This document shows positions 6,449-34,926 of a stretch of DNA of 64,000 bases, in pieces. The position numbers and the translations under genes are program-made. Every line of letters starts with the position of its first letter. Positions within the stretch are counted from its first letter, which is position 1. Source of the DNA: Anaerolineales bacterium (GTDB lineage Bacteria; Chloroflexota; Anaerolineae; Anaerolineales; E44-bin32); contig JBFFQB010000002.1 of the NCBI GenBank assembly GCA_041573795.1, forward strand, positions 46,749-110,748, given 5' to 3'. A model generated the notes under the pieces. The model saw only the letters and a list, made by a program, of their open reading frames with translations. It made no database searches and was not told the DNA's origin.

Positions 6449-6450
6449 AG

Positions 6451-18379: not shown

Positions 18380-19306
18380 TTACTGCGAAGTACTTCCTTC
18401 CCCTGATTCGTAGCTCAACATCCAGGTCTCCAGCGTTGTGCCAATGGCATTCAAACTCTCTGCTGAGACCTTGTCGATATTATCTTCCAGCGTATGCCAG
18501 TATGGATAGGTGAAGTCGATGATAAGAACTGCTGGGATTTCTGCCTGTATGAATGGAATATGATCATCTACTATGCTGGGCCCAGGTTCGTTTACGAACG
18601 CTTCAAAACCCAATTCTTGCCCCGTAGCCCAAATCGAGGAAACCAGCGCTGGATCAGAATTCCTTTCAACGGGTAGTCGTAAATCCCTATCACCGATCAT
18701 ATCCACAATGATGACAGCTTGTAGATCTTGATCAAGCTGATCAACAAAATAGCGGGAACCGACATCCCAATCCCACCCATCAATCCGCCCTTGATCCTCG
18801 GCATCAAAAAATGCAAAGACCAGATTGATTTGCTTCGAATCGATGAACACTCGGGCCAGCTCCAAAAGCACAGCCACACCGGAGGCACCGTCATTTGCGC
18901 CCGGAACGGCCAACGTGGGATTATTCAAATCGCGATCCGCGAACTTGCGTGTGTCGTAGTGTGCGCCAAGCAAGATCGGGTTCTCCCGGTCAGAGGCTGG
19001 ATGGTAGGCAATGATATTGGTCAGAAATGAACCCTTATACTCAAACGACTGTTGCTCCACGGCCCACCCCATCTCTTCAAGTTCTTCGACCAACCAGTCC
19101 TGTATTTGAATATGGCCAGTCGATCCGGGGAAGCGGGGACCGAAAGCCATTTGGTCGTTTACATATTGCAATGCTCGATCCCCTGAAAAGGTTCGTGCAA
19201 GCTCGGGTGTACTCACAGATTGGCAGGCTGAAAGCAAGGGTAGAAGGAACAAGCCTGTGCGTATAGCCTTGTTGAGATTATTGGAATATAAAAAGCGAGG
19301 GATCAT
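18380..19306 (-). CDS. M28 family metallopeptidase (aminopeptidase / glutaminyl-cyclase-like), secreted
   Basis: Signal-like N-terminus; GAHYDT, GANDGASGVAVLLELAR and FFDAEDQG metal-ligand motifs. Confidence 0.8.
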   Translation of the reverse strand: MIPRFLYSNNLNKAIRTGLFLLPLLSACQSVSTPELARTFSGDRALQYVNDQMAFGPRFPGSTGHIQIQDWLVEELEEMGWAVEQQSFEYKGSFLTNIIAYHPASDRENPILLGAHYDTRKFADRDLNNPTLAVPGANDGASGVAVLLELARVFIDSKQINLVFAFFDAEDQGRIDGWDWDVGSRYFVDQLDQDLQAVIIVDMIGDRDLRLPVERNSDPALVSSIWATGQELGFEAFVNEPGPSIVDDHIPFIQAEIPAVLIIDFTYPYWHTLEDNIDKVSAESLNAIGTTLETWMLSYESGEGSTSQ

Positions 19307-20676
19307 ATCTTATTGTGGCTATGCGCAACAAGGTCATTCTCTAAATACTGATTAAGATCTTCAAGTGCGCGTTTGGCATGAGCCGCAGCACGCTGCCGGC
19401 GATTTCGTCGAACCCCATCGTCCAACACAGGCAATAAACCCAGGTTTGCTTTCATCGGCTGGAAGGTCTCGGGCTCTGCATGGGAGACATAGTGACAGAG
19501 CGCTCCAAGCATCGTCGTTAAAGGCAACACCATTAAGGGCTCGTTATTAAGCATGCGCACAAGATTTTTCCCGGCGAGCAGCCCAGTGGCAATATTGCCG
19601 AGGTAGCCCTCCACCCCGGTTATTTGACCCGCGAAGTAAAGATCACTGCGATTTCGAAATTGCATTGTGGGATGGAGTAGATCGGGTGCCTTAAGGAAAG
19701 TATTACGATGCATTTGACCATAGCGGAAAAACCGGGCATCTTCTAAACCTGGGATCATCCGCAGTACGCGACGCTGTTCCGCATAGGTCAGATTGGTCTG
19801 GAAACCAACCAGGTTGTAAAGCGAGCCGGCAAGATCATCTTGCCGCAGTTGGACAACTGCGTAGGGGCGCTTCCCGGTCCGGGGATCCTTCAATCCTACA
19901 GGCCTCATCGGTCCATAGGCAAGCGAATCTTCACCGCGCTCTGCAATGATTTCTATCGGAAGACATCCTTCGAAGAACGTGTGGGAACCGGCTTTAACAC
20001 CTGCGTGTATAGCCGCTTCAAACTCGCGCAACGGGATTCTCTCTGCCGACTGAACCTCTCTTACAAAGCGGTAATATTCTTCTTTATTCAGCGGGCAATT
20101 GATGTAATCTCCCTTTTCCATTTCACCGCGGCCATAACGCGAGCTTCGAAACGCTATCGTCATATTGATCGTCTCATACTCAACAATTGGAGCAAGCGCA
20201 TCGAAGAAGAAAAGTTGATCTTCACCGCTCATGAGCTTAAGTGCTTCCGCAAGTGCAGGCGAGGTGAGCGGGCCTGAGGCGACGATACAAGGTCCTTCAG
20301 GTACTTCCAGGACCTCTCCGCGCACAATATTAATGCCTGGGTGGGCATCAAGAAAGCTGGTTACCCTTTGTCCGAATTGCTCCCGATCTACTGCCAGTGC
20401 GCCACCAGCCGGTACTGCAGTCTCTTCAGCGATGCGCAGCAACAATGACCCCATCACCCGAAGCTCGCTCATCAAAATACCCGATGCACGATCGGGTAAT
20501 TTTGACCCAAGAGAGTTAGAACAGACCAATTCAGCGAGTTTATCAGTTTGATGCGCGCCAGTGGCTACGGCTGGTCGCATTTCATAAAGGACGACCTCGT
20601 GCCCAGCTTCAGCCACTTGCCATGCCGCTTCGCTCCCGGCCAACCCGCCCCCGATAATTTTGACCTTGCTGCTCAT
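19303..20676 (-). CDS. trmFO: methylenetetrahydrofolate--tRNA-(uracil-5-)-methyltransferase TrmFO
   Basis: The ORF extends to 20733, but ATG 20676 gives the canonical MSSKVKIIGGGLAGSEAAWQ dinucleotide-binding start. The longer start would run over an intergenic promoter motif. Confidence 0.95.
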   Translation of the reverse strand: MSSKVKIIGGGLAGSEAAWQVAEAGHEVVLYEMRPAVATGAHQTDKLAELVCSNSLGSKLPDRASGILMSELRVMGSLLLRIAEETAVPAGGALAVDREQFGQRVTSFLDAHPGINIVRGEVLEVPEGPCIVASGPLTSPALAEALKLMSGEDQLFFFDALAPIVEYETINMTIAFRSSRYGRGEMEKGDYINCPLNKEEYYRFVREVQSAERIPLREFEAAIHAGVKAGSHTFFEGCLPIEIIAERGEDSLAYGPMRPVGLKDPRTGKRPYAVVQLRQDDLAGSLYNLVGFQTNLTYAEQRRVLRMIPGLEDARFFRYGQMHRNTFLKAPDLLHPTMQFRNRSDLYFAGQITGVEGYLGNIATGLLAGKNLVRMLNNEPLMVLPLTTMLGALCHYVSHAEPETFQPMKANLGLLPVLDDGVRRNRRQRAAAHAKRALEDLNQYLENDLVAHSHNKI

Positions 20677-20701
20677 GTGCGAGATTTTATCATGCTGAAT
20701 T

Positions 20702-20717
20702 TGGCACACATCTTGCA
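20702..20717 (+). promoter_or_regulatory. sigma-54 (-24/-12) promoter P0 upstream of rpoN
   Basis: TGGCACacatcTTGCA, exact match to TGGCAC-N5-TTGCW with GG-N10-GC spacing. It lies in the trmFO/rpoN divergent gap, 52 nt before the rpoN ATG. Confidence 0.7.
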
Positions 20718-20769
20718 ACACCTTTGCTTGCATTTTCGGATCATTGTATACTCACCTGCGAGGCGGAAC

Positions 20770-22182
20770 ATGTATCAATATCAAGATCAATCACTCAGAC
20801 CCCTGACAACGGCACACTTAGCCCAGACCATGAGTCTGCTTGTTCTCTCGAATATTGAGCTTCGAGACCGGGTCATCTCGGAATTATCCTCCAATCCTGC
20901 CTTAGAGCTGCTCGATGAACGAGTTTGCCCAAGCTGCCACAAACCCTTGGGAACAGGCGCGATTTGTCCTGCCTGCAGCCGTCACCAAGATGCTGAAGGC
21001 GATCCAATCGTCTTCCTATCCCCGCGCGATTCAATTCGCCCCTCGCGCAAGCGCCAGTTAGACGATCAGCCGCTTGATCGCGAACCAGCAGCTCCAGAAG
21101 ACCTTACCACCTATGTCATACGCCAATTGGCCGCAGAACTCCTTCCAGAAGATCGGCGCCTGGCACTCTATATCTTGGCGAGCCTTGATGATGACGGTTT
21201 TCTCAATGATCCGCCTGCGCTGATTGCTCAGGCAACTCGCTCGAGCCTAACGCAGGTACAACGCGTGATTGCACTCATCAATTCCGCTGACCCAATCGGG
21301 CTGGCTACCTCTGGACCAAAACAAGCCTTGCTGATTCAGCTCGAACAGCTTGCCGCAGATCACCCGATTGCCGAGTTGGCACGCGACATGCTGACGGAGA
21401 CTTTCGCGGCATTAGGTCGTAGAGAGTATGACAAAATCGGCCATGAGCTTGAGGTCAAACCCGCCAAGGTGCGCCAAGCGGCAGAATTCATCCACGACAA
21501 TCTAAACCCCTACCCTGCGCGTGCCAACTGGGGATCAGGCCACCACCCCATGTCAGGCGATTCGAACGTTTACCATACACCCGATATCATGGTTACTCAC
21601 AATCCCAATACCGAGCAGGGTCCCTTGGTGGTCGAAATCTTTTCCCCGCTTTCGGGTTGGCTACGAGTAAACCCGCTATTCAAACAAGCCATGGACAGCG
21701 CTTCAGCTGACCAAGCTGAGGATTGGTCCGAGCAGCTCGAAAAGGCTAACCTCTTTGTGAAATGCATCCAGCAGCGCAACAATACGATGCGCCGACTCAT
21801 GCAGCTGCTTGTGTCTCAGCAGGAAACGTTCATCCTAGAAGGTGCCCGCCACTTGAAACCCATGACCAGGGCACAGATTGCTGATCAGGTCGGTGTGCAC
21901 GAATCGACGATTTCACGCGCGGTTGCGAATAAATCCGTTGCGCTTCCAGATGGGCGCATCATCCCATTGGCCAAGTTCTTCGACCGAAGCTTGTCTGTCC
22001 GTGACCGGATAAAGGAAATTGTTCGTAACGAAACTAACCCTCTTACCGACGATCAAATCGTTGCGCTCCTGAAAAAGGATGGGGTTAAAATTGCTCGCAG
22101 AACCGTGGCGAAATATCGGTCGATTGAGGGAATCTTACCGGCGCGGTTGCGGGGTGAGCATAAGCTATCCCAAGCAGCATAA
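20770..22182 (+). CDS. rpoN: RNA polymerase sigma-54 factor RpoN
   Basis: Region I LTTAHLAQTMSLLVLSNIELRDRV, C-terminal HTH and RpoN box ARRTVAKYR. The ORF-track start 20548 overlaps trmFO on the other strand; ATG 20770 is preferred. Confidence 0.9.
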   Translation: MYQYQDQSLRPLTTAHLAQTMSLLVLSNIELRDRVISELSSNPALELLDERVCPSCHKPLGTGAICPACSRHQDAEGDPIVFLSPRDSIRPSRKRQLDDQPLDREPAAPEDLTTYVIRQLAAELLPEDRRLALYILASLDDDGFLNDPPALIAQATRSSLTQVQRVIALINSADPIGLATSGPKQALLIQLEQLAADHPIAELARDMLTETFAALGRREYDKIGHELEVKPAKVRQAAEFIHDNLNPYPARANWGSGHHPMSGDSNVYHTPDIMVTHNPNTEQGPLVVEIFSPLSGWLRVNPLFKQAMDSASADQAEDWSEQLEKANLFVKCIQQRNNTMRRLMQLLVSQQETFILEGARHLKPMTRAQIADQVGVHESTISRAVANKSVALPDGRIIPLAKFFDRSLSVRDRIKEIVRNETNPLTDDQIVALLKKDGVKIARRTVAKYRSIEGILPARLRGEHKLSQAA

Positions 22183-22196
22183 GTAAAGGTAGATCA

Positions 22197-24158
22197 TTGG
22201 CGAGAGATACAACACCCACAAATCCGATCGCACGCTTTTTTAAATCAGAGCCGCATCGTGAACTGTTCGACACACTTGCGGATACGCTCGACAGCGCCGT
22301 CCTGGTTCTCTCCGGGACGGAGCCGCGTTTAATAACCTGCAATCACCAGTTTCTGCTGATGACTGGTTTCGCCCGCAAGGACGTTGAATCACTCTCTCCT
22401 TCTGATCTCTTTACAGAAGTTGAAGGACAGGCTGCCCTCGATAAAATCCTGCAACCCTGGGATACGCCCGATTGTCAGCTGAATGAAGTTCCCATCCGAA
22501 CCCAATCAGGCGAGTTGCTTTGGATCGACCTTCAGGCTTTCTCGGTCACGCCCTCTCATGAGGTTGTCCTCGTACTTTCAAGACCATCGCAAGAACGGGT
22601 GAGTAGTGAAGCACATCAACGCGCAGAAGCTGAGCGCATGTCTTTACTTATGGAAATATCGGATCTTGCCATCGAGAGCGGCGCCGCCACGTTAACTCTG
22701 CTCCTTGAGCAAATCAAGAAACTCCTTTCAGCAAGCTTTGCAGGCATGTATCAGGTTGATCCGAGTTCGCCAGCCTATACATTGGTCGGTACTCTACCCC
22801 CCGCTTTCCCGGAGCAAGTCGACGACAGCGTAATCGGAACCTTACCCAGGCATTCGCGCTGGTCGATTGGACATCGCCCGGAGCATGAGCTCGCCCGTGC
22901 CGCACGCGCAGCTGAGGTCCGTCATCTTCGCACAACCCGAATTGGTGACGAAAGCTCGTGGGTAGGCCTTCTGGTCGTCTGTTGGGATGAGGAGCTCACC
23001 GAAGGGGAAGATATCGAAACCATCATGCAAGTCGCAACAAATTTATGCCACGCCGCGCTGCATGTCGGCCTTCTGCGTTCCAGCACAACTGAGAGCGAAC
23101 TTGTGCTCAATCAGCTTGAGGATCAGATTGAGCATCTTTACGAAGGAATTTCAGACACACTGCTAATCGTAGATTCAGAATTATCCATCATGCGAGCGAA
23201 CGCAGCTCTCGAACGCCTGCTCGGTTTCTCTGCTGAAGAAGTCATCAATCGTCCAGTCCAGGATATCTTGGTAGGACCTGAAGATGTTACGGTGACACTT
23301 TTAGATGCGCTCGGCCATCAACGCGAATCGGAACGATCGAAGCTTGTGCTGCACCATCGCGAGGGAAATCCTTTGCCAATACACCTGCGCGCAGTGCCCT
23401 TAGAGATGGCAGGTGAGACCCAACTGCTCCTCGTCCTCAAGGATCAATCGGAGCAACAAGCGATCGAAGATCAGACAGAAAGTCTGGCGCAGCGGGCCCT
23501 CCTGGGTGAGGTCACTGCTATATTCGCGCATGAAGTTCGCAATCCTATCAATAATATCTCGACTGGCGTTCAACTCATCGCTTCCCGCCTGGGACAGGAT
23601 CATCCGCAATATGAAGCCCTCGATCGCATTCGTACGGAATGCACTCGCTTAGATCAGCTGATGAGCGATGTCCTCTTCTTCGCCCGTCCGTTAGAATTGA
23701 AAATGGAAGAGATCGACCTATCCGAGATGATGGATCGTATCCTGGCTCGTTGGACACCACGTTTTCAACAATCGAAAGTTCGCTGCCAAACCATCTTCCA
23801 AAAGGAGCTTCCGCCTGCATCTGTTGATCCCCGAACGTTCGAGCGCGTACTCGTCAACTTGATCAGTAATGCCCTTGAAGCTATGGCTGATGGGGGTACA
23901 ATCTCCATTTCAATTGGGTTTGCTGAAGAGGGTCCTAAAGATCAGCTGGAGTTAAAGGTCGCCGATACGGGTCCGGGGATCCCGGCAGATAAGATTCAAC
24001 GGATCTTCGACCCCTTCTTCACAACCAAGAAGGATGGCACAGGACTTGGTCTTGCTATTAGCCGTCGGATCATGACTGCTCATCGTGGCACCATTCAGGT
24101 CGAATCATTTCCTGATGCCGGCACGGTTTTCACGATCCATATTCCTGTAGCAGCGTAA
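22197..24158 (+). CDS. soluble multi-PAS sensor histidine kinase (NtrB-like)
   Basis: No TM segments; PAS-like blocks; H-box FAHEVRNPINNI; N/G boxes NLISNALEAM, DTGPGIP, GTGLGLAISR; 14 nt after rpoN. Confidence 0.85.
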   Translation: MARDTTPTNPIARFFKSEPHRELFDTLADTLDSAVLVLSGTEPRLITCNHQFLLMTGFARKDVESLSPSDLFTEVEGQAALDKILQPWDTPDCQLNEVPIRTQSGELLWIDLQAFSVTPSHEVVLVLSRPSQERVSSEAHQRAEAERMSLLMEISDLAIESGAATLTLLLEQIKKLLSASFAGMYQVDPSSPAYTLVGTLPPAFPEQVDDSVIGTLPRHSRWSIGHRPEHELARAARAAEVRHLRTTRIGDESSWVGLLVVCWDEELTEGEDIETIMQVATNLCHAALHVGLLRSSTTESELVLNQLEDQIEHLYEGISDTLLIVDSELSIMRANAALERLLGFSAEEVINRPVQDILVGPEDVTVTLLDALGHQRESERSKLVLHHREGNPLPIHLRAVPLEMAGETQLLLVLKDQSEQQAIEDQTESLAQRALLGEVTAIFAHEVRNPINNISTGVQLIASRLGQDHPQYEALDRIRTECTRLDQLMSDVLFFARPLELKMEEIDLSEMMDRILARWTPRFQQSKVRCQTIFQKELPPASVDPRTFERVLVNLISNALEAMADGGTISISIGFAEEGPKDQLELKVADTGPGIPADKIQRIFDPFFTTKKDGTGLGLAISRRIMTAHRGTIQVESFPDAGTVFTIHIPVAA

Positions 24159-24172
24159 TTCAGGAGAATTTA

Positions 24173-25441
24173 ATGAGTGCGACAGTATTAATCGTCGATG
24201 ACGAAGCACCGGCCAGAAATTTTATTAGCGAGGCTTTAAGTGACGCTGGCTATGAAGCCATTGAGGCGGGGTCCTTAAAAGAGGCCAATAAAGTTATTGA
24301 CACCGGAGCAGCCGATATCATCCTGCTGGATGTCATGTTACCGGATGGCTCTGGGTTGACCCTGCTTGACCGCATATCCATGGAATCCCCTCGCCCGCCA
24401 GTGATCCTGATCACCGCATTCGGTGAGGTTGATACAGCAGTAGAGGCGATGAAGAAGGGTGCTCAGGATTTTCTCCAGAAGCCACTCGATCTCGAGCGAC
24501 TGCAACAAGCAGTCGAGCGATCGTCAGAGGTCGTCTCCCTGCGAAGGGAACTTGATTTACTGCGCCGCTCTTCCACCGGTGATATCGAAATGGTTGTAGG
24601 CGAAACTTCGACGATGAAACAAATTATGCTTGAGGCAGAGAGAGCCGCCTCGGCTGCTGTCTCCGTTCTCATCACCGGTGAAACAGGGACAGGAAAAGAG
24701 GTATTAGCTCGTACGATCCACAGTATAAGCCCGCGCGCCGATAAACCCTTTATCCCCATTAACTGCGCCGCCCTACCGGACACGATGATTGAATCTGAGC
24801 TCTTTGGTCATGAGGCCGGAGCGTTTACAGGAGCACAAAAGCGCAAGCCGGGATTAATCGAAATCGCCGACGGCGGCATTCTTTTCCTGGACGAGATCTC
24901 TTCTACGAGACCTGAAATGCAAGCAAAGCTCCTGCGTGTTCTCGATGAACATAAGTTCCGTCGGGTGGGTGGTGTCAATGAAATTGATGTCGATGTCCAG
25001 ATCCTGGCGGCCTCCAACCGCGATCTTCCCGCCATGATCGGGGAGGGTACTTTCAGGGAGGATCTCTACTACCGCCTTAAGGTCGTTGACCTGCATCTTG
25101 TACCTTTACGCCAGCGCATTAATGACATACCCGCGCTGGTGGGTAACTTTATCCGTCAAATCAACCTCCGTATAGGCGGGATGGTAGAAGGGATCACACC
25201 CCGGGCGATCGATGCACTTAAAGCCCATTCTTGGCCTGGAAACATCCGCGAACTCCGGCATGTCATTGAACGGGCTATATTATTCTGTGATGAGGATATG
25301 ATTGACTTGCCTCATCTACCCCCAGATATCCAGGCGCTTGGAGAGAAACTTTCTTCGCCCACGCAAACCTCCAAGAAGCAAAGCACCGTAAAAAAGACCA
25401 GTGCAACAAAGAAGAAGACAAAGTCCAAGAAGAAATCCTAA
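24173..25441 (+). CDS. sigma-54-dependent response regulator (REC + AAA+ sigma-54 interaction domain) without recognisable C-terminal HTH
   Basis: REC (VLIVDDE...IILLDVMLPDGSG); Walker A GETGTGKE; GAFTGA loop; Walker B ILFLDEI; ESELFGHE. The C-terminus is a Lys/Ser/Thr-rich tail (KKQSTVKKTSATKKKTKSKKKS) instead of a Fis-type HTH. Confidence 0.9.
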   Translation: MSATVLIVDDEAPARNFISEALSDAGYEAIEAGSLKEANKVIDTGAADIILLDVMLPDGSGLTLLDRISMESPRPPVILITAFGEVDTAVEAMKKGAQDFLQKPLDLERLQQAVERSSEVVSLRRELDLLRRSSTGDIEMVVGETSTMKQIMLEAERAASAAVSVLITGETGTGKEVLARTIHSISPRADKPFIPINCAALPDTMIESELFGHEAGAFTGAQKRKPGLIEIADGGILFLDEISSTRPEMQAKLLRVLDEHKFRRVGGVNEIDVDVQILAASNRDLPAMIGEGTFREDLYYRLKVVDLHLVPLRQRINDIPALVGNFIRQINLRIGGMVEGITPRAIDALKAHSWPGNIRELRHVIERAILFCDEDMIDLPHLPPDIQALGEKLSSPTQTSKKQSTVKKTSATKKKTKSKKKS

Positions 25442-25449
25442 GCGCATAA

Positions 25450-25465
25450 TGGCATAGTCCTTGCA
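25450..25465 (+). promoter_or_regulatory. sigma-54 (-24/-12) promoter P1
   Basis: TGGCATagtccTTGCA with GG-N10-GC spacing; 9 nt after the EBP stop and 38 nt before ATG 25504 (GGAGG RBS in between). Confidence 0.65.
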
Positions 25466-25503
25466 ACATTCGCCTTCAGAAGTAATTCACTCTGGAGGCG
25501 AAC

Positions 25504-25836
25504 ATGATTCCCCTATCCTTTAACGATATTCAACTCATAATTGCGGCCTCAATATTCGTGCTGGGTTTCCTGCTGATCTTGATTGGCGCCCTCGTGATGG
25601 TCAGCAGAAGTTACTCTCGCGAAGTTCGGACATTGGCCGCACATACTGCCCGTCTTGGCCAGAAAGGCATTGCACAAGATATCACCGGCCTGGTAAATAG
25701 TGCGACGGAACTGGTTGCCTCCATCAATGCCTTGGTACGGACTGCCAGTGGGATCGGGCTGTTTTTGATCCTGCTGGGCATCACCATGCTTGCAGCCGCT
25801 TATTGGATCATTCAACAAATTCCTTGGACCATCTAA
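25504..25836 (+). CDS. small membrane protein (110 aa, two TM helices flanking a ~50-aa loop)
   Basis: GGAGG RBS; hydrophobic segments IIAASIFVLGFLLILIGALVMV and GIGLFLILLGITMLAAAYWII; first gene after P1. Confidence 0.6.
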   Translation: MIPLSFNDIQLIIAASIFVLGFLLILIGALVMVSRSYSREVRTLAAHTARLGQKGIAQDITGLVNSATELVASINALVRTASGIGLFLILLGITMLAAAYWIIQQIPWTI

Positions 25837-25855: not shown

Positions 25856-28800
25856 ATGCTCAATGACGCCGCCATCCTCGCACAATTGAAAGAAGCATTC
25901 CAGCCTTCGGAGCTAAGCGCTACTATCACCCGCCTTCAGCGTGTTCCGGAAGTTTGGCAAGCGCTACATGACGGGGATTTTCTCCGCTTCGTGCTCGAAC
26001 ATCCAGAAGAGATCGAATGGACACCCAGCGCAATCGCCGATAGCTGTCTTCTCTATAAACGAGCCAATCAATCTGGAAGCGAGGATTCTTCGTCAAGCCA
26101 TTCGACACAGGCTGTATCAAATCTATTTGATCTGGCGACCGAGGCTCACAGCTTAGCGAAACAACTTAATCATTCGATCGCAGATACGCTGGAGACTCTA
26201 CAACCATCTAGATCGTGTTTCAGCCAGCTTTGCTGTGCCTGGGCGCATATTGATGAAACCTCCAAGGTGATAGAGCAGATCTTAGCCGCACAAGATCGTC
26301 AGATGACCGCCTTTTTGCTGGAAGTCCTTCGCGCCCAGTATGCAGATGCGCAGATACTTGAGATCGTCGAAACCCATGGCCCTGCGTTTGCTCACTATAT
26401 CCCTGAACTGCTGAAAGATGGAGAGAAGGAGATTGCACTCCTGTTGGCTGATCAAGTAAAGGATGATTTATCCGGGTCCTCAACCGGAGATGAGGCATTG
26501 CTGTATGCCTATGCGCAGGCAGTGGGCGGTGACTATGAGGGAGCTCATATCTCCCTTTCCTCTGCCTGGGATAACGCGACAGAAGCTACGGCATTGGTGG
26601 CCGATCAGTTAGCACAGGTCGCACGTCTTGAAGGCAATCCTTCTGTGGAGCTAGAAGCCCGGCGCCAGGCTGTCGAGAGAAGCTTTTCCCCGATCCGGCG
26701 AGCAGCGCTTGCTCGCTCGCTGGTTGAATCTGACCAGGCATATAACGCCTACCAACTGACTTCTCAGGCAGAGAGCATCGAAGAGCGGATAGCTTTCGGT
26801 ATGGCAGCCTTGAAGCAAGGCTTTCACAGCGAAGCATTGAGTGCCTTATCGCAGGTAAAGAATGAAGCGCTGCAGCTCGAGTACAAAGATACTTCCTGGC
26901 TACGTTGGATGGCTGAAGGCTTGAGCAGAAGCGGGGCGCTTGCAGATACGATAGAAACCACAACGTATATCGCCAGACTTTTGCCCCAGGATGAAAACAT
27001 CGCCCTGGAGCTAGCGGAGCTTCTCGAGCGAGCTGGAGATTTATCGGCGGCCGTAACTCAGGCTGAGTTCGCCCTTGCACTGAACCCACAATCAACAAAT
27101 GCTCGCAGAGTTTTAGCGCATACGCTGCGCCTCGATGGTCAAGCGGCAAAAGCTCTCGGATATTTCGAGCAAGTCGTGCAAGATGATCCATCCGTACACT
27201 TCGAGTACTGTGAATGTGCCCTAGAAGCGCAGGAGGATGATCTCGCCGTGGAAATCGCTACAACCCTGATGGGTGAGCATCCAGATTCTGCCATGGCGCA
27301 TTCCTTTTTCGCCCGAGCCAAACATCACCAAGGGGAACACGAAGTGGCGCGAGCCGCCATCGAGAAGGCCATCACCCTCGATAAGAGCAGTGTAGATCCC
27401 TGGCTGGTTCTCGCCGAAATCCTTGTAGCTACCGGCGAAAACGATGCTGCCGGTGAAACGCTGCTTCAGGCCATCCAGATTGCGCCAGAGAATGCCAAGG
27501 CACATCAAGCGCGCGCAGACTGGCTCGCTGCCCAAGATCGTTTCCATGAAGCGCGCGAGCATAGTGCCAGAGCGGTCGAGTTAGATCCAGGTTGCGCATC
27601 ATGGCTCGTCGCTGATGCCAGACTGCTGGCCAAGACCGGTGATCCTCAAGGTGCCCGTGCACGTTTGCAGCAAGCTTACGCGTTACAGCCAAAGAATTGG
27701 GACCTCATTCTTGAACTGGCCCGCAGTTATGAGTCATCTGGCGAGCTCGAGCAAGCTGTTCAGCTCATCGGAGACGCTCCTGGTGAGTTCGATGATGCCT
27801 TCCGCATTGATACTGGTCGCATTTTGATTAAGGCGGGGGTTGATGGAAACACCGAAGCTTTGCAAAAAGGCTTAGACCATTTCAAGCGGGCTCATCCCGA
27901 TGGGGAAACCCTACCGGATCATCTTTTCTGGTCAGCCCGCGCGAATGAGGTTCTGAAAGAATACAACAAATCACTTGGGCAGTACGAAGAATACCTGGCA
28001 CAGTTCGAAGGGCTTAAGCAGCACCGTACGCTCGAGGCGGTTCTGGGTTACTCCCGTGTTTCTTTAGCCCAGGGTAAGCCGGACCAGGTCATCGCTTTCC
28101 TCCAAGCCAATCGAGACAAGTTCCCGGCATCGATCGATGTGGTCAGCCTGCTCGCAGAAGCACAGCTCGCCAATGGCGAGGGGAAACAAGCCTATGAGAC
28201 TGCTAGAGAAGCGATCGCATTGAATCCTGTTTCAGTGGATGCCCATAGGCTCGTGAGCAAGACAGCTGAAGCGATAGGAGACATCCGTACTGCCATCGAT
28301 GCGGAGCAGGAGATTCTCTCTCAACAGCCGGAAACTGGCGCGAATTGGCGCCGCATGGCCCGATTGCACTTCAGCATTAGGGATACCGCCTCAGCCCGTG
28401 CGCACTTGGCTAAAGCAATCCATCTCGATCGCAGCGATGCGAAGTCTCTGGTCGAGCTTGCAGATTTAAGTGCCGAGTTTGATCTCAGCGGCACGGAGCT
28501 ACGCTTGATGAAACGTGCTGGAAAATTAGCACCCAGGGATCCAGGGCTACAGCTTCAGCTCGCTGAAGTGGCTGAGAGCTCGGGCGATTTTGATACTGCT
28601 TACGCAGCATTGATGTGCTGCCTTCAAGAGAAGAATGATGACGTGCAGTTGGTGAAACGAGCTGCAGAAGTGAGCTCTAAGGCCGGGCAGTCAGGACGAT
28701 CAATCGAGCTTTATGAACGCGTCCTGGAGAAAGATCCCGAAGATGCCGTAAGCCTTGTGGCACTAGCTGATACCTTCGAACAAATGGGAGATCCTCGGGC

Positions 28801-30928
28801 AAGTTTGAAGTATTACCAGCAATTGCTTGATCTCGCTACAGAGGAACCTGCGATCCTGGCCAAGATCGCCAGGGCATATCTTGATTTTGAGGATGCAGGT
28901 AAGGCACGCTCGATTATTGAAAGAGCTGTACATCTTCACCCCGATCATGTTGGTATTCAACTTGTTCAGGTCGAAGCATCCCTTCAGGCTGGCGATGACG
29001 AAAAAGCGCTGGAGATTGTAGAAAAAGTCATCGCGCAGTCCGCTCCTGACGCTCACACCCTGGCCCTGGCGGCCTTATGTGCCGTCATGACCGGTGACAT
29101 TGAGCAGGCCAGGGCTGGACTCGATGAAGCACTCCACGAAACCCACTTATCCTCCCAGGCATCGGCGGTCCTTTTGCGAGTTTGCGCCGCTTTGGGTGAA
29201 TGGCGGCTTTACTCCTCGCTGCTGAATGGCATTAGCGGGCTAGCTAAATCATCAGTAAAAGACGCAAGGTTGGCATTGAGGGCACTCCTGCGTGCACGTG
29301 ATTTAGCTTGGCTCCATACAAATTTATTGAACATTCGGGTGAATACGCCCGATGCAAAGGCAACGCAAGCTCGGATAGACAGCCTGTTTCAAGGTATTCC
29401 CACCGACGCGCGATTCATGAATTCGGCCTTCGAGATATTCGACCGATGGCAAATTCAACTCGAAAGCCCTATGTCTGAATTTGATGCCACCTTCGATCAA
29501 CTTTCCCACACCGAGCAGCAGGAGCTCATCCAGGCTGCGGCGATGGGGTTGATCAAAGCCAATCGCCCTTCCAAAGCACTCAGCTTATTGGATTCTCATC
29601 CACCGCTTGGCACCCAGCGGGGCTATCATGCGCTGTTGACAAGCATAGCGGCTCAGCAAGCAGATCAGCCCGCACGGGCAAAAGACTCTGCTGAACGAGC
29701 AACACGCTTTGCCGAGACGCGCCCAAGTGGTTCCTATCTCCTGGGTTCCCAGGCTCACGCAGAATCCGATATGGAGAGCGCAATTACTGCCATTAACGCC
29801 GCCTTGGCAATATGGTCAAATGAGCCCGCATGGCATGCTGATCTCGCTCGCATCTACATGCTTGGTGAGCGCAAGGAAGCCGCCCTTCCACACTTACAGC
29901 AAGCTGTTGAGCTGGATCCGCATGATTCCGAGTATCTGCTCGCACTTGCCCGAGCATACCGCAATGCCGGTGAATGGTCTCAAGCCGAAACAACGTATGC
30001 GCGCTGTTTGCAGGATTCACCATCAGCAGCACAGGTTTGGAAAGAAGCGGCCCAAGTTGCTTTAGTTAATGGGAATGCTTCCCAGGCCGAAAGCTGGTTT
30101 GAAAGAGCCTGCAGTTTGGCGCCCTCCGATGCTGTCTGCCTGATGGGATCGGCACAAGCTGCCCTACTTATGGATCAACCAAAACTGGCTGCCGATCGCG
30201 CCCAAAGCGCATACAAGCTTGCTCCAAATGAACCACAAGTTCTGGCTGGCTTCGCCGAGGTATTGGCAGTGCAAGGAAAAATGGAGAAGGCTATCCAGGC
30301 CTATGATCGAGCGTTGAAGATCTCCGGGGGAGATCCCCAAGTTCAGCTAGCGCGGAGCAGATTATTGCTGAAGAGTGGCCAGTATACCGATGCCATCAAT
30401 GACATTAATGCTGTCATTGCTACAGATGATTCTGATACCGACGCCTGGGCTCTACTAGCGGAAGCATATGAGCAGGCTTCACAAATGGACGAGGCACTCA
30501 ACGCAATCAATCACGCCATCGCAGATTCACCTCGTTCTGGCCCATACCGCCTGATCCAAGGACGAATGTATCGTAAGGCTGGTCAGCTGGATCAGGCCTT
30601 AAAAGTCTTGCGCGAGCTTGAGAATGACGAGCCCGACAACGGCTCACTACCTGCAGAACTTGGGAACGTCTATGAAGCCCGCAGAGAGACGGATGCGGCG
30701 CTTGAAGCCTACCTACGGGCAGTTGCACTCAATCCTGACGATATTCAATCCCACATGAGCGCTGGGATCATTTTAAAGGGCTTGAAATCCTACGAGCATG
30801 CCGCGCAGATGTTTGAACGCGTGGTCACAGCTCGACCTAACGACCCTAAAGCCTTACACCAACTCGCTGCGGTACGTGCATTGCAACTTGTACATGGTGG
30901 CATCGAGACCCAGGTGGTGACGACATGA
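25856..30928 (+). CDS. giant tetratricopeptide-repeat (TPR) protein, 1690 aa
   Basis: Uninterrupted ORF. From ~aa 300 onward there are dozens of 34-aa TPR-like units (recurring A..Y..AL.L.P....A...LA). The N-terminal ~230 aa are non-repetitive. Confidence 0.85.
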   Translation: MLNDAAILAQLKEAFQPSELSATITRLQRVPEVWQALHDGDFLRFVLEHPEEIEWTPSAIADSCLLYKRANQSGSEDSSSSHSTQAVSNLFDLATEAHSLAKQLNHSIADTLETLQPSRSCFSQLCCAWAHIDETSKVIEQILAAQDRQMTAFLLEVLRAQYADAQILEIVETHGPAFAHYIPELLKDGEKEIALLLADQVKDDLSGSSTGDEALLYAYAQAVGGDYEGAHISLSSAWDNATEATALVADQLAQVARLEGNPSVELEARRQAVERSFSPIRRAALARSLVESDQAYNAYQLTSQAESIEERIAFGMAALKQGFHSEALSALSQVKNEALQLEYKDTSWLRWMAEGLSRSGALADTIETTTYIARLLPQDENIALELAELLERAGDLSAAVTQAEFALALNPQSTNARRVLAHTLRLDGQAAKALGYFEQVVQDDPSVHFEYCECALEAQEDDLAVEIATTLMGEHPDSAMAHSFFARAKHHQGEHEVARAAIEKAITLDKSSVDPWLVLAEILVATGENDAAGETLLQAIQIAPENAKAHQARADWLAAQDRFHEAREHSARAVELDPGCASWLVADARLLAKTGDPQGARARLQQAYALQPKNWDLILELARSYESSGELEQAVQLIGDAPGEFDDAFRIDTGRILIKAGVDGNTEALQKGLDHFKRAHPDGETLPDHLFWSARANEVLKEYNKSLGQYEEYLAQFEGLKQHRTLEAVLGYSRVSLAQGKPDQVIAFLQANRDKFPASIDVVSLLAEAQLANGEGKQAYETAREAIALNPVSVDAHRLVSKTAEAIGDIRTAIDAEQEILSQQPETGANWRRMARLHFSIRDTASARAHLAKAIHLDRSDAKSLVELADLSAEFDLSGTELRLMKRAGKLAPRDPGLQLQLAEVAESSGDFDTAYAALMCCLQEKNDDVQLVKRAAEVSSKAGQSGRSIELYERVLEKDPEDAVSLVALADTFEQMGDPRASLKYYQQLLDLATEEPAILAKIARAYLDFEDAGKARSIIERAVHLHPDHVGIQLVQVEASLQAGDDEKALEIVEKVIAQSAPDAHTLALAALCAVMTGDIEQARAGLDEALHETHLSSQASAVLLRVCAALGEWRLYSSLLNGISGLAKSSVKDARLALRALLRARDLAWLHTNLLNIRVNTPDAKATQARIDSLFQGIPTDARFMNSAFEIFDRWQIQLESPMSEFDATFDQLSHTEQQELIQAAAMGLIKANRPSKALSLLDSHPPLGTQRGYHALLTSIAAQQADQPARAKDSAERATRFAETRPSGSYLLGSQAHAESDMESAITAINAALAIWSNEPAWHADLARIYMLGERKEAALPHLQQAVELDPHDSEYLLALARAYRNAGEWSQAETTYARCLQDSPSAAQVWKEAAQVALVNGNASQAESWFERACSLAPSDAVCLMGSAQAALLMDQPKLAADRAQSAYKLAPNEPQVLAGFAEVLAVQGKMEKAIQAYDRALKISGGDPQVQLARSRLLLKSGQYTDAINDINAVIATDDSDTDAWALLAEAYEQASQMDEALNAINHAIADSPRSGPYRLIQGRMYRKAGQLDQALKVLRELENDEPDNGSLPAELGNVYEARRETDAALEAYLRAVALNPDDIQSHMSAGIILKGLKSYEHAAQMFERVVTARPNDPKALHQLAAVRALQLVHGGIETQVVTT

Positions 30929-33588
30929 TTGACCGCAGTACTTTCATCAAAATCCTTCACACATCCCTGAGCGCAGGTAGATCAGATTTCGCACGGTTCA
31001 CCGCAATGGACTGGCTTGAAGCCTGGCCTGGGGATGCGAGCATACAGACCTACCTGGCCCGGGCCGAGATGGAATTGGGCTTGATTGACAATGCGATTGC
31101 GCGAGTTGATCAAGTCATCATGGTCGATCCAGAACAAATCGATGCCTATGAGATCAAGGCGAGCGCCTTACGATCGAAGGGCGCGATCGAGCAATCCAGG
31201 ATCTATCATGCTTGTGCACAGATCTTAAAAATGAATCCGCTCGAACCAGGTCAAGCACCTACATGGGCGGTCCATTTGCAGGAAGCCATGGGGCATGTTC
31301 GAGCAGCTGACTATGACGCGGCGGTAGCAAAAGCCTCGATCTCCCTTACCGCCGATCCTCAGTTAATCCTGCCGACCTATTCCTTGATGTCAATTCAGCG
31401 CACAGCTGGGAAAGATGCTGATGCCCTTGCGGTGGCGCAAAATGGCTATGACCGTTGGCCTGAATGTGTCGCTTTCTTGCTGATTCTTGGTCAATCGTTA
31501 GTCGACCAGGGTGAGTCGCAAGCGGGGATCGAACTCCTGCATCATGCAGCAAAGAACGATCCCAGTGGTCAAATTACGAAGCGCTTCTGGGGGGAACATC
31601 ATGCCTATGCTGATTTATGGCCATTGAACTTGCAAGCTGAGTTGAGTAGGCCCATCCCTGCCGATGTTGCTACAAGGCTCGGTGATAATCAGCTGGCTGG
31701 ATCGATTCGGGAGAAAAGCCCCCAGCCCGAGCCCAAACCCACAGCGTGTGACTGTGACACTCATACGATCGTAAAGAAAGATGATCAAGTAGCACCCGAG
31801 CGTAAGCAGCAGGCCAAAATAAACCTGGAAGCTCTACCTTCACCGAAACCCTGGGAAGCTTTTAAAGGACCGAATGCAAGTGAAGCTGGCATTAATCTCA
31901 ACCCAACCCAGGTGCCTGAGACTTTGGTAGAGATCGAGAATGAGTTCAGGCAACTTGCTCAAAGATTAAACGCAAGGAAAAGGGGCAGGGATGAAGATGG
32001 TCGCTCCCCAGCTTATATCGTTCTGTCGAGCCGCTCACATATGCTACAGCGCTTCGAAGAAGCTGGCTTCCAATCCATTGATGAACGTATATTGAGCCTG
32101 GTTGAAAGTGTTCGTCGGCGCTATGGTTGGACAGCATACCGGATCTATATTGATGATCCCAGGACACTCGAACCCTTCGGGCTGTCTCCTGTCGATCCAG
32201 GCAACGCCTGGCAAATCAAGCTGCGTCTGGCCGACCTCGATCGGGCCCTAAGCGCACGGGGCGAGATGATCGGAGCACTATTGATCGTCGGTGGAAACGG
32301 CATCATCCCATTTCACCTGTTACCCAACCCAACCGATGATGACGATGAAGTCATCCCCTCGGATAATCCTTATGCCACTACGGATGAAAATTACTTCATC
32401 CCGGAATGGCCTGTGGGGCGTCTCCCCGGTGAGGAAGAATCGGAGTTTATTCTCCAGCAGTTGGACTATGCTCTCAAAAGCCACAATATCCAGGCTGCAC
32501 CCAGACCAACGATTGGACGCTTGTTCCGACTCCTGGGGTTTGGATTTCTCCGCATGCTCGCACCAAGCGTGAAGACGCTTGGCTATTCCGCCAGTATTTG
32601 GCGCAAATCTTCCTTCGCCGTATTCAAGACGATTGGGGATCCCAAGAACCTGATCACCTCTCCACCGATTGAAGCAACAAAGCTGCCTTCCGAGGCGATG
32701 CGACCGGTGCGACTATCCTATTTCAATTTGCATGGACTGGAGGACGCGCCTGAATGGTATGGGCAACGTGATCCTGCAAAAGACCACGAAGCCATAACGG
32801 AATTTCCCATCGCGCTCCGCCCAATCGATGTTGTTAACAGCGGTCGAGCGCCCAAGGTCGTGTTTACGGAGGCCTGTTACGGAGCGAATAGTATCGGTAA
32901 AACGAGTGAAACCGCATTAAGCTTAAAATTTCTAACCTCCGGGAGCCGGGCTGTTATTGGTTCAACCAAGATCTCCTATGGATCAATCCGACCTCCCCTT
33001 ATCGCGGCTGATCTTCTGGGTCAGCTCTTCTGGCAATTTCTCAATCAGCGCCTGCCTGTGGGTGAGGCACTTCGCCGAGCCAAGATCAAACTGGCAACCG
33101 AAATGCACCAACGACAGGGGTATCTCGACGGGGAAGATCAGAAGACTTTGATTTCGTTTGTTCTATATGGAGATCCTCTCTTCCAACCCAACCCATCAAA
33201 CCCGCATCCAGGGGAAAAGTCGGTCATTCGTCGGGTCAAGCGACCCTCCAATATGAAAACGGCTTGCGCCCTTGGTGGTAAGTCCATCTCTGAAGATGAG
33301 ATTTCCCCGGTGACAATGAAACGGATTGAACACCTCGTTGCCCAATACCTGCCGGGAATGCAGGAAGCTGTGTGCAGCATTCACAATCAGCACATAGAAT
33401 GCCGCGGCGGCGATCATGTTTGCCTTTCCCAGCAGTTCGATCAGAAGTCGATTCAACAGTCACCGGTTGGTTCCATGGTTATTACCCTTTCGAAGCATAT
33501 TGCTGATGGCCAACGACGGCATCCGCATTTTGCCCGTCTTACCCTGGATTCCCAGGGTAAGGTCATGAAGCTGGCTGTTTCGCGCTAA
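30925..33588 (+). CDS. TPR domain + peptidase C25-like (gingipain-like, clan CD) cysteine protease domain + C-terminal PepSY-like module
   Basis: ATGA overlap with the upstream TPR gene. C25-like block LLIVGGNGIIPF...SDNPYATTDENYFIPEWPVGRLPGEE. Candidate catalytic His in FNLHGLEDAPEWYG (CAT 32731-32733) and Cys in VVFTEACYGAN (TGT 32875-32877). Confidence 0.65.
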   Translation: MIDRSTFIKILHTSLSAGRSDFARFTAMDWLEAWPGDASIQTYLARAEMELGLIDNAIARVDQVIMVDPEQIDAYEIKASALRSKGAIEQSRIYHACAQILKMNPLEPGQAPTWAVHLQEAMGHVRAADYDAAVAKASISLTADPQLILPTYSLMSIQRTAGKDADALAVAQNGYDRWPECVAFLLILGQSLVDQGESQAGIELLHHAAKNDPSGQITKRFWGEHHAYADLWPLNLQAELSRPIPADVATRLGDNQLAGSIREKSPQPEPKPTACDCDTHTIVKKDDQVAPERKQQAKINLEALPSPKPWEAFKGPNASEAGINLNPTQVPETLVEIENEFRQLAQRLNARKRGRDEDGRSPAYIVLSSRSHMLQRFEEAGFQSIDERILSLVESVRRRYGWTAYRIYIDDPRTLEPFGLSPVDPGNAWQIKLRLADLDRALSARGEMIGALLIVGGNGIIPFHLLPNPTDDDDEVIPSDNPYATTDENYFIPEWPVGRLPGEEESEFILQQLDYALKSHNIQAAPRPTIGRLFRLLGFGFLRMLAPSVKTLGYSASIWRKSSFAVFKTIGDPKNLITSPPIEATKLPSEAMRPVRLSYFNLHGLEDAPEWYGQRDPAKDHEAITEFPIALRPIDVVNSGRAPKVVFTEACYGANSIGKTSETALSLKFLTSGSRAVIGSTKISYGSIRPPLIAADLLGQLFWQFLNQRLPVGEALRRAKIKLATEMHQRQGYLDGEDQKTLISFVLYGDPLFQPNPSNPHPGEKSVIRRVKRPSNMKTACALGGKSISEDEISPVTMKRIEHLVAQYLPGMQEAVCSIHNQHIECRGGDHVCLSQQFDQKSIQQSPVGSMVITLSKHIADGQRRHPHFARLTLDSQGKVMKLAVSR

Positions 33589-33603: not shown

Positions 33604-33619
33604 TGGCACGCAACTTGCA
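33604..33619 (+). promoter_or_regulatory. sigma-54 (-24/-12) promoter P2 upstream of orf426-ftsZ
   Basis: TGGCACgcaacTTGCA, exact consensus with GG-N10-GC spacing. It lies in the 57-nt gap after the protease gene, 26 nt before ATG 33646 (GAAGGA RBS). Confidence 0.75.
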
Positions 33620-33645: not shown

Positions 33646-34926
33646 ATGTCCCTCAGCCAGCAACAACTCGGTTTTCACTATTATCCCGATACAGATCACT
33701 ATAGTGATTCAGATTTAAACACCTGGCTCCCGATACTCGAGAGTGCCGGCGCTAGCTGGTTGACGCTGCAGGCAAAGGGGAGCAAGAACATCCCTGAGCA
33801 CTTCCTTGCTGCGCTCAAGGCAAGTGGCATTCAGCCGATCATTCATATTTGCGAACCGATTGGATCATTGCGTATGGCGCAGGTCTACACAGCCTTAAAG
33901 ACCTACGCCGATGCCGGTGTCAATTACGTGCTCTTTTACGATCGACCGAATATGCGGGCATCATGGCCCGCATCCACCTGGAGCCATGAATCTTTGATAA
34001 GTCGCTACGTGGATGGCCTGCTTCCGATACTGGAGGCACAGCTCGAGATGGGCATGCTGCCAACCTTACCCCCGCTCGAGCCTGGAGGCGATTACTGGGA
34101 TACTGCCTTTCTGGAGTCCCTCCTCGCTCTGATGCAAAAAAGTGTCGATGCAGCGATTATGGACAAGCTCACGCTCTCGATCTACATGTGGACGTATGGC
34201 AGACCAGTCGATTGGGGACAAGGTGGACAGGTAGCCTGGCCTGATGCCCGGCCGTATCGTTCCCCTATGGGCTCCCAGGATCAGCGTGGCTTCCAGATTA
34301 ATGAGTGGTACCAAGAAATCGCACGGAAAATTCTCGGACGCACCTTACCGGTACTGGTTGTGGGGGGAGGCGCGGGTCCATCGGAAGCTTACGCCACCAC
34401 AGAAGCGCGACAGCTTGGCAACAACGAGGTCGCCCGTCATCTGGCGCAAGAAGGGCTTCCAGAGGAGATCCTCAATTTCAACTTTTACCCCCTTGCCACA
34501 GCCGAAAATCACCAGGATTATCCTGCTGCTTGGTATATCGCCCCCGTCGAAAAAGTCGTGCCCGACCCGTCCGATGAGCACGCGGTAGTCGCTCCCTTAG
34601 AAGCGCAGGCTCAAAAGAAGGGCATTGAGCACTATGTGCTTTTAGGATTTAGCAACCGGATGAACGGCCTTGATGTTTGGAATGCCATTGCCCCTCCGAT
34701 TATGAGTACTCGGGCGACTGTCGGTTTTTCGCTTGAAGAAGCCAAGCAAGCTGTTCGTGTGAGCATCGTTGGCGATTACGATACATTCCCGGCAATGATC
34801 GAAGATCAACTGAGAGCAAACGGCACAGAAACTGAACGCTTTGAAAAGTGGGACACGGATGAATTCCTACTTGCTGCCTCTACCTGGGCAACAAAGTCCA
34901 CGGCAACAGGAGTCGAAGATGAGTGA
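33646..34926 (+). CDS. hypothetical protein (426 aa), possibly a TIM-barrel glycosidase-like fold; translationally coupled to ftsZ
   Basis: Clean ORF behind P2. Alternating beta/alpha-like pattern (GFHYYP, WLTLQA, QPIIHI, NYVLFYDRPN, LPVLVVGGG). Its stop overlaps the ftsZ start by 8 nt (ATGAGTGA). Confidence 0.65.
   Translation: MSLSQQQLGFHYYPDTDHYSDSDLNTWLPILESAGASWLTLQAKGSKNIPEHFLAALKASGIQPIIHICEPIGSLRMAQVYTALKTYADAGVNYVLFYDRPNMRASWPASTWSHESLISRYVDGLLPILEAQLEMGMLPTLPPLEPGGDYWDTAFLESLLALMQKSVDAAIMDKLTLSIYMWTYGRPVDWGQGGQVAWPDARPYRSPMGSQDQRGFQINEWYQEIARKILGRTLPVLVVGGGAGPSEAYATTEARQLGNNEVARHLAQEGLPEEILNFNFYPLATAENHQDYPAAWYIAPVEKVVPDPSDEHAVVAPLEAQAQKKGIEHYVLLGFSNRMNGLDVWNAIAPPIMSTRATVGFSLEEAKQAVRVSIVGDYDTFPAMIEDQLRANGTETERFEKWDTDEFLLAASTWATKSTATGVEDE

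Follow-up and report, generated by a model that had tools for sequence, protein, structure and literature searches.

A predicted sigma-54 promoter fused to a putative housekeeping-type promoter ahead of the rpoN, kinase and activator genes of Anaerolineales

The DNA considered here is a stretch of 64,000 nucleotides (nt), called the window below, from an Anaerolineales bacterium of the phylum Chloroflexota (GenBank assembly GCA_041573795.1, contig JBFFQB010000002.1). It contains rpoN, the gene of the sigma factor sigma-54, followed on the same strand by the genes of a sensor kinase and of a sigma-54 activator, and preceded by the divergent trmFO gene. The gap that separates trmFO from rpoN (20677-20769, 93 nt) holds four conserved blocks, namely an extended -10 element on the trmFO strand, a sigma-54 (-24/-12) element oriented toward rpoN, a hexamer TTGC(G/C/T)N, and a TG-TATACT element followed by GAGGC (Table 1). 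A previous reading of the window (hereafter, the original prediction) had proposed that rpoN sits behind an exact sigma-54 promoter and may therefore be wired to its own product. Comparison with related loci points to a promoter of dual type in front of rpoN, in which a sigma-54 site shares DNA with a putative sigma-A promoter. Further downstream, two other predicted sigma-54 promoters precede a small membrane protein gene (o110) with two TPR protein genes, and a 426-amino-acid (aa) protein gene (p426) with ftsZ.

Table 1. Features of the trmFO-rpoN-ftsZ region, in window coordinates. Loci are the related loci described in the text; bits refer to the sigma-54 weight matrix.
Feature	Coordinates	Strand	Remarks
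trmFO (GIDA family)	19303..20676	-	Pfam GIDA/TrmFO; start read as CAT on the + strand at 20674-20676
trmFO extended -10, TGATAAAAT	20684..20692	-	7 nt from the trmFO ATG
Sigma-54 (-24/-12) promoter element, TGGCACacatcTTGCA	20702..20717	+	exact consensus; 25.2 bits; orthologous sites in 79/80 loci
-35-like TTGCTT	20724..20729	+	6 nt after the -12 element; TTGC(G/C/T)N conserved in the 'long' class
Predicted sigma-54 transcription start	20727..20728	+	from standard sigma-54 geometry
-10-like TG + TATACT	20745..20752	+	TATACT at 20747-20752; 17 nt before the ATG; conserved
rpoN Shine-Dalgarno GAGG	20760..20763	+	GAGGC conserved in aligned upstream regions
rpoN (sigma-54, 470 aa)	20770..22182	+	Pfam sigma-54 AID, CBD, DBD; CPxC...CPxC insert after region I
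Soluble sensor kinase, PAS-PAS-HisKA-HATPase	22197..24158	+	Pfam; 14 nt after rpoN; syntenic in related loci
Sigma-54 activator, receiver + AAA+ (GAFTGA) + lid	24173..25441	+	Pfam; no DNA-binding domain
Second predicted sigma-54 promoter, TGGCATagtccTTGCA	25450..25465	+	27.0 bits; 9 nt after the activator stop, 54 nt before o110
Inverted repeat, CGCCTTCAG...CTGGAGGCG	25471..25500	+	one arm (anti-Shine-Dalgarno) spans the predicted start; the other forms the o110 Shine-Dalgarno
o110 (110 aa), small two-transmembrane protein	25504..25836	+	found only in Anaerolineales relatives
Two large TPR proteins (1690 aa; 887 aa with peptidase C25-like region)	25856..33588	+	syntenic across the clade
Third predicted sigma-54 promoter, TGGCACgcaacTTGCA	33604..33619	+	exact consensus; 28.3 bits; 42 nt before the 426-aa gene
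p426 (33646-34926), then ftsZ (open reading frame 34841-36052)	33646..36052	+	bounds of ftsZ are those of the open reading frame; its true start may differ

The sigma-54 element before rpoN is composed of TGGCAC (20702-20707), the spacer acatc (20708-20712) and TTGCA (20713-20717). All 11 specified positions of the consensus TGGCAC-N5-TTGCW are matched, with the key dinucleotides GG (20703-20704) and GC (20715-20716) at the consensus spacing, and the first base of the motif lies 68 nt from the ATG of rpoN. Exact matches to this consensus are rare: the 64-kb window holds two, where 0.06 are expected, and none of 100 shuffles gave two or more. Both the coordinates of the motif and the limits of the gap (trmFO start at 20676, rpoN ATG at 20770) agree with the original prediction. 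Automatic gene callers propose a 476-aa form of TrmFO that would run over the rpoN promoter. The 457-aa form is, however, favoured, with a GIDA domain that starts at residue 4 and homologues that align from residue 1. The length of the stretch between the trmFO start codon and the sigma-54 site is also variable among relatives, in favour of the short start.

A weight matrix of 26 columns was built from 119 distinct sites found before o110 and p426, the rpoN sites being excluded against circularity. With this independent matrix, the sites at 33604, 25450 and 20702 are the three best matches in the window, and the next best reaches 10.9 bits. Sites with one mismatch at 3502, 21377, 24035 and 26377 all score below 10 bits and were set aside as chance matches or coding sequence. 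From standard sigma-54 geometry, transcription is predicted to start 11-12 nt after the C of the -12 GC, leaving a 5' untranslated region of about 42 nt; the predicted start is upstream of the GAGG at 20760, as the placement of a promoter demands. The idea of a structured rpoN leader was dropped, as the predicted 5' untranslated regions 20727-20790 and 20754-20790 fold like shuffled sequences (z = 0.22 and 0.24, respectively).

The nearest RpoN proteins all come from metagenome-assembled genomes of Anaerolineales and other Anaerolineae. A scan with one genome per species gave 80 loci (L001-L080), in which RpoN is 49-84% identical to that of the window. As judged by tBLASTn, nearly all loci share the order trmFO (divergent), rpoN, kinase, activator, o110 and 1690-aa TPR protein. 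A simple search (at most two mismatches, GG and GC required) finds a site before rpoN in 79 of the 80 loci, always on the rpoN strand and 48-77 nt before the ATG. The sole locus without a site, L027, has only 64 nt of upstream sequence. Thus, loss of the motif despite a kept gene order, which according to the original prediction would have spoken against a role in rpoN expression, was not seen. The weight matrix gives the same picture: the top-scoring site of the 135 nt preceding rpoN reaches at least 18.9 bits in 79 of the 80 loci (median 24.1), a score attained by none of 4,476 background segments of 135 nt (99.9th percentile, 11.2 bits). Among the sites with at most one mismatch in 870 kb of loci, 78 stand before rpoN, 60 before o110 and 34 elsewhere, many of the latter at orthologous intragenic positions. 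The site also remains beside rpoN where trmFO is not adjacent (L035, L077 and L079) or is 1.7 kb off (L075). Of the positions left unconstrained by the search, position 11 holds C in each of the 76 distinct sites, position 7 holds only purines and positions 17-18 read AC in most sites, while the upstream flank and the remainder of the spacer vary, a pattern like that of the sigma-54 consensus. Altogether, the conservation indicates that the rpoN site is under selection.

It could be argued that the conserved sequence merely resembles a sigma-54 promoter and is the operator of another DNA-binding protein, or a chance match that was inherited. The evidence is, after all, drawn entirely from sequence, and in one clade (the group of L002) the region is partly palindromic. 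Such an operator would nevertheless have to reproduce every specified consensus position and the distribution of conserved and variable positions typical of sigma-54 sites, at scores not attained by any background segment. Two other conserved gene sets of the locus are moreover preceded by the same motif in a different flanking sequence, and a canonical sigma-54 is encoded right beside the site. This explanation therefore appears extremely improbable.

In the clade concerned (L002-L008, L012, L017, L053, L074 and L080), the -12 hexamer TTGCAA is common to the rpoN site and to a second, reverse near-consensus site, TGGCAATAATGTTGCA, directed toward trmFO. An example is found in L003 (5936-5951, - strand), and both sites together form the palindrome TGGCA-N17-TGCCA. 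The reverse sites score below 15 bits with the trained matrix.

The second component of the gap resembles a housekeeping promoter. The original prediction had pointed to a weak sigma-70-like pair, TTGCTT and TATACT separated by 17 nt, as a possible source of basal expression. The pair is present at the coordinates given and is also conserved among the relatives. Scanning 20300-21000 with a sigma-70 consensus returned no promoter-like site, the pair remaining below the threshold. TTGCTT matches the -35 consensus hexamer at 3 of 6 positions, and TGTATACT occurs once in the window, where 0.5 occurrences are expected, hence the window alone lends it no support. Support for the pair is thus only phylogenetic. 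TATACT or TATAAT is found 15-20 nt from the rpoN ATG in about 70 of the 80 loci, and in the long class a TTGC(G/C/T)N hexamer is conserved 16-18 nt upstream of TATACT. The sigma-54 promoters of o110 and p426 contain no TATACT; this element is therefore not part of a sigma-54 promoter as such and is best read, from its conservation, as a sigma-A -10 element.

TATACT follows the final base of the -12 element at a few discrete distances. The interval is 28-29 nt in 54 loci, 18 nt in 4-5, 8 nt in 12 and 6 nt in two. In each register, a similar pentamer stands 16-18 nt upstream of the -10 element, at the location of a -35: TTGCG in the long form, the TTGCA of the -12 element itself in the 18-nt form, and the TGGCA of the -24 element in the compact forms. 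The aligned sequences thus suggest that the sigma-54 and sigma-A promoters are offset by about 0, 1 or 2 helical turns and always share DNA. Judging from ordinary polymerase footprints, the sigma-54 and sigma-A polymerases should be unable to occupy the rpoN promoter together. Across these registers, the orientation of the sigma-54 site and its location upstream of the Shine-Dalgarno sequence are constant. In five loci (L010, L014, L016, L018 and L019), there is no downstream -10 element; a TG-TATCAT element is found upstream instead, the upstream element ATTGTATCAT reads as a -10 both ways, and the leader contains a small hairpin. It can be noted that the spacing (29, 18, 8 or 6 nt) changes by steps of about 10-11 base pairs (bp), and that the pentamers TGGCA, TTGCA and TTGCG are 11 nt apart. 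Slippage between pentamer repeats could be at the origin of the registers.

The sigma-54 site and the predicted TTGCTT/TATACT promoter therefore overlap or abut. Taken as a whole, the comparisons lead us to favour, with moderate confidence, the view that the element is a genuine binding site of the sigma-54 holoenzyme and a promoter for the rpoN-kinase-activator operon, fused to a promoter of the sigma-A type.

The products of the predicted operon fit this assignment. Pfam confirms the three identities announced in the original prediction, and the order of the genes is kept in relatives. The gaps between rpoN and the kinase gene and between the kinase and activator genes are of 14 nt each, and no terminator-like site was found in any gap of the locus. 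Residues 13-461 of the window RpoN align with the solved sigma-54 structures of E. coli and Klebsiella. Across 23 diverse relatives, no change is seen in region I, in the RpoN box (ARRTVAKYR) or in the helix that recognizes the -12 element (HESTISRAV). By these sequence criteria, the protein is a canonical sigma-54. Between region I and the core-binding domain, RpoN carries a CPxC...(9)...CPxC motif formed by C53, C56, C66 and C69 (residues 53-69; 20926-20976), the four cysteines being also invariant in the 23 relatives. Located where E. coli sigma-54 has the acidic region II, this insert looks like a zinc ribbon. Lacking any hydrophobic segment, the kinase is expected to be cytoplasmic.

The activator comprises the Pfam domains Response_reg (5-115), Sigma54_activat (142-307) and AAA_lid_14 (313-392), with the receiver aspartates, the Walker motifs and the GAFTGA motif all present. 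No helix-turn-helix was detected by the Pfam HTH_8 model, and alignments to AtoC/NtrC models extend only to about position 400 out of some 460. Orthologues (n = 66) measure 388-421 aa, with a median of 391, and end directly after the AAA lid. From its sequence, the activator thus has, across the clade, the group V architecture of FlgR and CtcC, which lack a DNA-binding domain. Consequently, no enhancer should be needed, so that a promoter located in a 93-nt gap can be activated, and any bound closed complex would be a substrate for the activator. In the window and in L001, the activator ends with a Lys-rich tail of 30 aa, KKQSTVKKTSATKKKTKSKKKS (residues 394-422; 25352-25441); most orthologues end near residue 391, and short KKK tails occur in several. 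Such a tail might provide a non-specific affinity for DNA in place of the DNA-binding domain. Neither a second rpoN nor a second activator was found in the 934 kb of sequence examined.

From these elements, the following scheme can be proposed. The sigma-A promoter would ensure a basal supply of sigma-54, kinase and activator. The sigma-54 holoenzyme would then wait on TGGCAC-N5-TTGCA as a closed complex. Once phosphorylated by the soluble PAS kinase, the activator, because it has no DNA-binding domain, would remodel this complex straight from solution. Initiation near 20727-20728 would yield more of all three proteins, thereby creating positive feedback, and the same activated protein would fire the two other conserved promoters of the locus, before o110 and the TPR genes and before p426-ftsZ. 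Because both promoters share DNA, the unactivated closed complex would compete with the sigma-A polymerase and cap basal expression. A dual promoter of this kind, in which housekeeping transcription provides the basal level, the activator drives positive feedback and the two polymerases probably compete, is what we consider the best account of the sequence data, and a reasonably probable one. The comparisons establish the site with its conservation and orientation, the operon, the canonical sigma-54 and the activator devoid of DNA-binding domain; from them we infer the start site, a requirement for sigma-54 and activator, the sign of the feedback and any switch-like behaviour.

Several observations weigh against positive feedback. 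TATACT is 6-29 nt past the -12 element, so that polymerase footprints overlap as they would at a purely repressive site, and a block of overlapping sigma-70 promoters by sigma-N has been reported (PMC6755734). Where single-copy rpoN genes are known to be autoregulated, the regulation is negative (PMC3538637, PMC3916325). The rpoN transcript stays at a roughly constant level in Chlamydia, whose activator is of the same type (PMC7482065), and RpoN of Geobacter is reported to be constitutively expressed (PMC2725144). Moreover, the 80 sites are all orthologous; their uniform orientation represents one inherited state rather than 80 independent events.

The overlap with the sigma-A elements would thus also allow a negative autoregulation by occlusion. 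In its pure form, a stable closed complex that is never activated would exclude the sigma-A polymerase from TTGCTT/TATACT and keep the level of sigma-54 constant. This mechanism would account for the sharing or abutting of DNA between the sigma-54 site and the -35/-10 elements in every register (29, 18, 8 and 6 nt), and has precedents both in the documented occlusion by sigma-N and in the negative mode of R. etli rpoN1 and R. leguminosarum rpoN. It is harder to reconcile with an activator devoid of DNA-binding domain, as nothing obvious would shield a complex of consensus strength at rpoN while equally strong promoters fire before o110 and p426. A roadblock would, moreover, work in either orientation and at many positions, whereas the site always points toward rpoN and precedes the Shine-Dalgarno sequence although the sigma-A elements were rearranged repeatedly. 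Finally, the five loci lacking a downstream TATACT keep the site although there is no such element to occlude. We consider a purely negative autoregulation rather unlikely. Two features of the alignment argue, conversely, for productive initiation: while the sigma-A elements shift, the sigma-54 site retains its orientation and its place before the ribosome-binding site, and the strength of the rpoN sites is close to that of the sites before the presumed target o110 (34 exact and 44 one-mismatch sites before rpoN, as compared with 45 exact and 15 one-mismatch sites before o110).

The divergent gene offers another possible role for the site. In relatives, trmFO is preceded by an extended -10 element, TGATAGAAT or TGATACAAT, only 6-8 nt from its start codon, which indicates that the trmFO mRNA is probably leaderless. 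The palindromic -12 hexamer TTGCAA was ruled out as a -35 element for trmFO, as the spacing would be 23 nt. The trmFO extended -10 element of the window is located 10 nt from the -24 element, so that a sigma-A polymerase bound there would overlap the sigma-54 site, and trmFO is the upstream neighbour of rpoN in most loci. The site might then mainly tune trmFO, a closed complex covering the upstream half of its promoter, with the linkage to rpoN being incidental. This is, however, very improbable, given that the site keeps the same distance to rpoN in the loci where trmFO is absent or remote, while its distance to the trmFO start varies.

Among known systems, the rhizobial prxS-rpoN2 operon (R. 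etli, Mesorhizobium loti), which is under the control of a NifA/sigma-54 (-24/-12) promoter (PMC3538637, PMC3916325), is comparable in that rpoN lies behind a -24/-12 promoter and sigma-54 helps make sigma-54 (PMC3538637). There too, the start of the loop is ascribed to basal expression or to a second, weak promoter (PMC3538637). However, rpoN2 is a second, symbiosis-specific copy that can be primed by the housekeeping rpoN1. Its promoter precedes prxS and needs NifA bound at an upstream activator sequence, and the operon encodes neither kinase nor activator. In Anaerolineales, by contrast, the promoter is placed directly before rpoN, apparently the only copy of the locus (no second one in 934 kb), and the cognate kinase and an enhancer-independent activator are encoded in the same predicted operon. 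In R. etli rpoN1 and R. leguminosarum rpoN, sigma-54 also feeds back on its own gene (PMC3538637, PMC3916325), an effect that could arise here too through the overlap with a sigma-70-type promoter. Nevertheless, only repression is reported in these cases, whereas here a consensus-strength promoter oriented toward rpoN is combined with an enhancer-free activator, and this combination makes activation likely. The premise of the original prediction that rpoN is constitutive in well-studied bacteria was too strong, given the autoregulated genes of R. etli and R. leguminosarum and the case of prxS-rpoN2 (PMC3538637, PMC3916325).

As for the activator, its closest counterparts are FlgR of Helicobacter and Campylobacter (kinase FlgS) and CtcC of Chlamydia (kinase CtcB), which also associate a receiver with an AAA+ domain without DNA-binding domain. 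Phosphorylated by their cognate kinases, these proteins act on the sigma-54 holoenzyme without an enhancer (PMC7175178, PMC7482065). Unlike in Chlamydia, where the rpoN transcript is roughly constant (PMC7482065), the three genes are here grouped in one predicted operon behind a sigma-54 promoter. In the rpoN2-vemR-fleQ operon of Xanthomonas, an rpoN gene is likewise co-transcribed with genes of a response regulator and a sigma-54 activator (PMC12271599). Yet, rpoN2 is a second copy dedicated to flagella, and FleQ has a DNA-binding domain. The authors of that study left the expression pattern of the operon undetermined and reported no sigma-54 promoter (PMC12271599). In Chloroflexota, sigma-54 has been noted only as present in some members (PMC3162934). 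Our literature search returned nothing relevant on the sigma-54 biology of Anaerolineae or Chloroflexi and no paper describing the present arrangement, and autoregulation of rpoN is not addressed in the comparative analysis by Francke et al. The closest system is thus prxS-rpoN2 in wiring, rpoN2-vemR-fleQ in gene order and FlgR/CtcC in activator type.

A formal resemblance exists with positively autoregulated alternative sigma factors of the ECF type in the sigma-70 family. In these, a promoter recognized by the sigma factor itself stands before its gene, which is co-transcribed with that of a signalling partner. Their self-amplification is signal-dependent, activation occurring by release from an anti-sigma factor. 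The sigma family is different here, and an ATP-dependent activator takes the place of the anti-sigma release. What appears new in Anaerolineales is the combination of a self-promoter before rpoN, an operon shared with a kinase and an enhancer-independent activator, a fusion with sigma-A elements in phase-preserving registers and a conservation at the scale of the order.

The two downstream promoters would extend the control of the activator to neighbouring genes. Before o110, a sigma-54 site with at most one mismatch is found in 60 of the 61 loci having this gene. An inverted repeat in the o110 leader is conserved in the loci, with a few compensatory changes. In the window, CGCCTTC (25471-25477) can pair with GGAGGCG; it is CT-rich and stands at most 25 nt upstream of the Shine-Dalgarno sequence, as in the anti-Shine-Dalgarno 'insulators' that Levy et al. 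described within sigma-54 promoters of E. coli (bioRxiv 10.1101/086108). An RNA reading through from the rpoN operon is predicted to fold at -23.7 kcal/mol, with a stem of about 12 bp in which the Shine-Dalgarno sequence is fully paired, as compared with -6.9 kcal/mol for an RNA starting at 25475. The o110 leader, and not that of rpoN, thus resembles the insulators of Levy et al. in motif and predicted pairing. If it acts in the same way, such an insulator would limit translation of o110 to the RNA made from its own promoter.

The o110 protein matches no Pfam or NCBIfam family, and its homologues are labelled 'uncharacterized membrane protein' or 'hypothetical protein'. A label of Trk-type K+ transporter on a single cluster of homologues was taken as a misannotation. 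The 1690-aa TPR protein is weakly conserved among relatives (about 28% identity), as compared with o110 (37-93%, mostly 55-93%). For p426, 74 metagenomic loci with enough upstream sequence were compared (from L085-L164). A site with at most one mismatch is present within 150 nt upstream of the gene in 66 of them, and ftsZ is located downstream in 69. The p426 protein has no Pfam or NCBIfam match and no relative among solved structures.

The gene rpoN is usually treated as constitutive, regulation being left to the activators. If the promoter described here fires, the amount of sigma-54 becomes itself a regulated and self-reinforcing variable, in a design where sigma factors compete at a single promoter that is also subject to positive feedback. 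A whole order of a poorly studied phylum keeps rpoN, a kinase and an enhancer-independent activator behind a promoter in which sigma-54 and housekeeping elements appear fused. To our knowledge, almost nothing is known of sigma-54 in Chloroflexota. The present locus provides a candidate sigma-54 regulon in this phylum, small and conserved, with three promoters within 13 kb, one of which is beside ftsZ. One may go further and imagine that, in Anaerolineales, sigma-54 is not a broad constitutive factor but a self-contained, self-amplifying cassette made of sigma-54, one soluble PAS kinase and one activator lacking a DNA-binding domain, under a hybrid sigma-A/sigma-54 promoter. This cassette would flip a local programme comprising the two-transmembrane protein, the two giant TPR proteins and the ftsZ-co-located p426, as an ECF-like switch tying sigma-54 to division or filament architecture in these filamentous bacteria. 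This extension is tentative, and we regard it as on the whole doubtful.

Elsewhere in the window, a tmRNA gene is found at 6449-6842 on the - strand (Rfam RF00023, 145.8 bits), which is the only Rfam match in the window.

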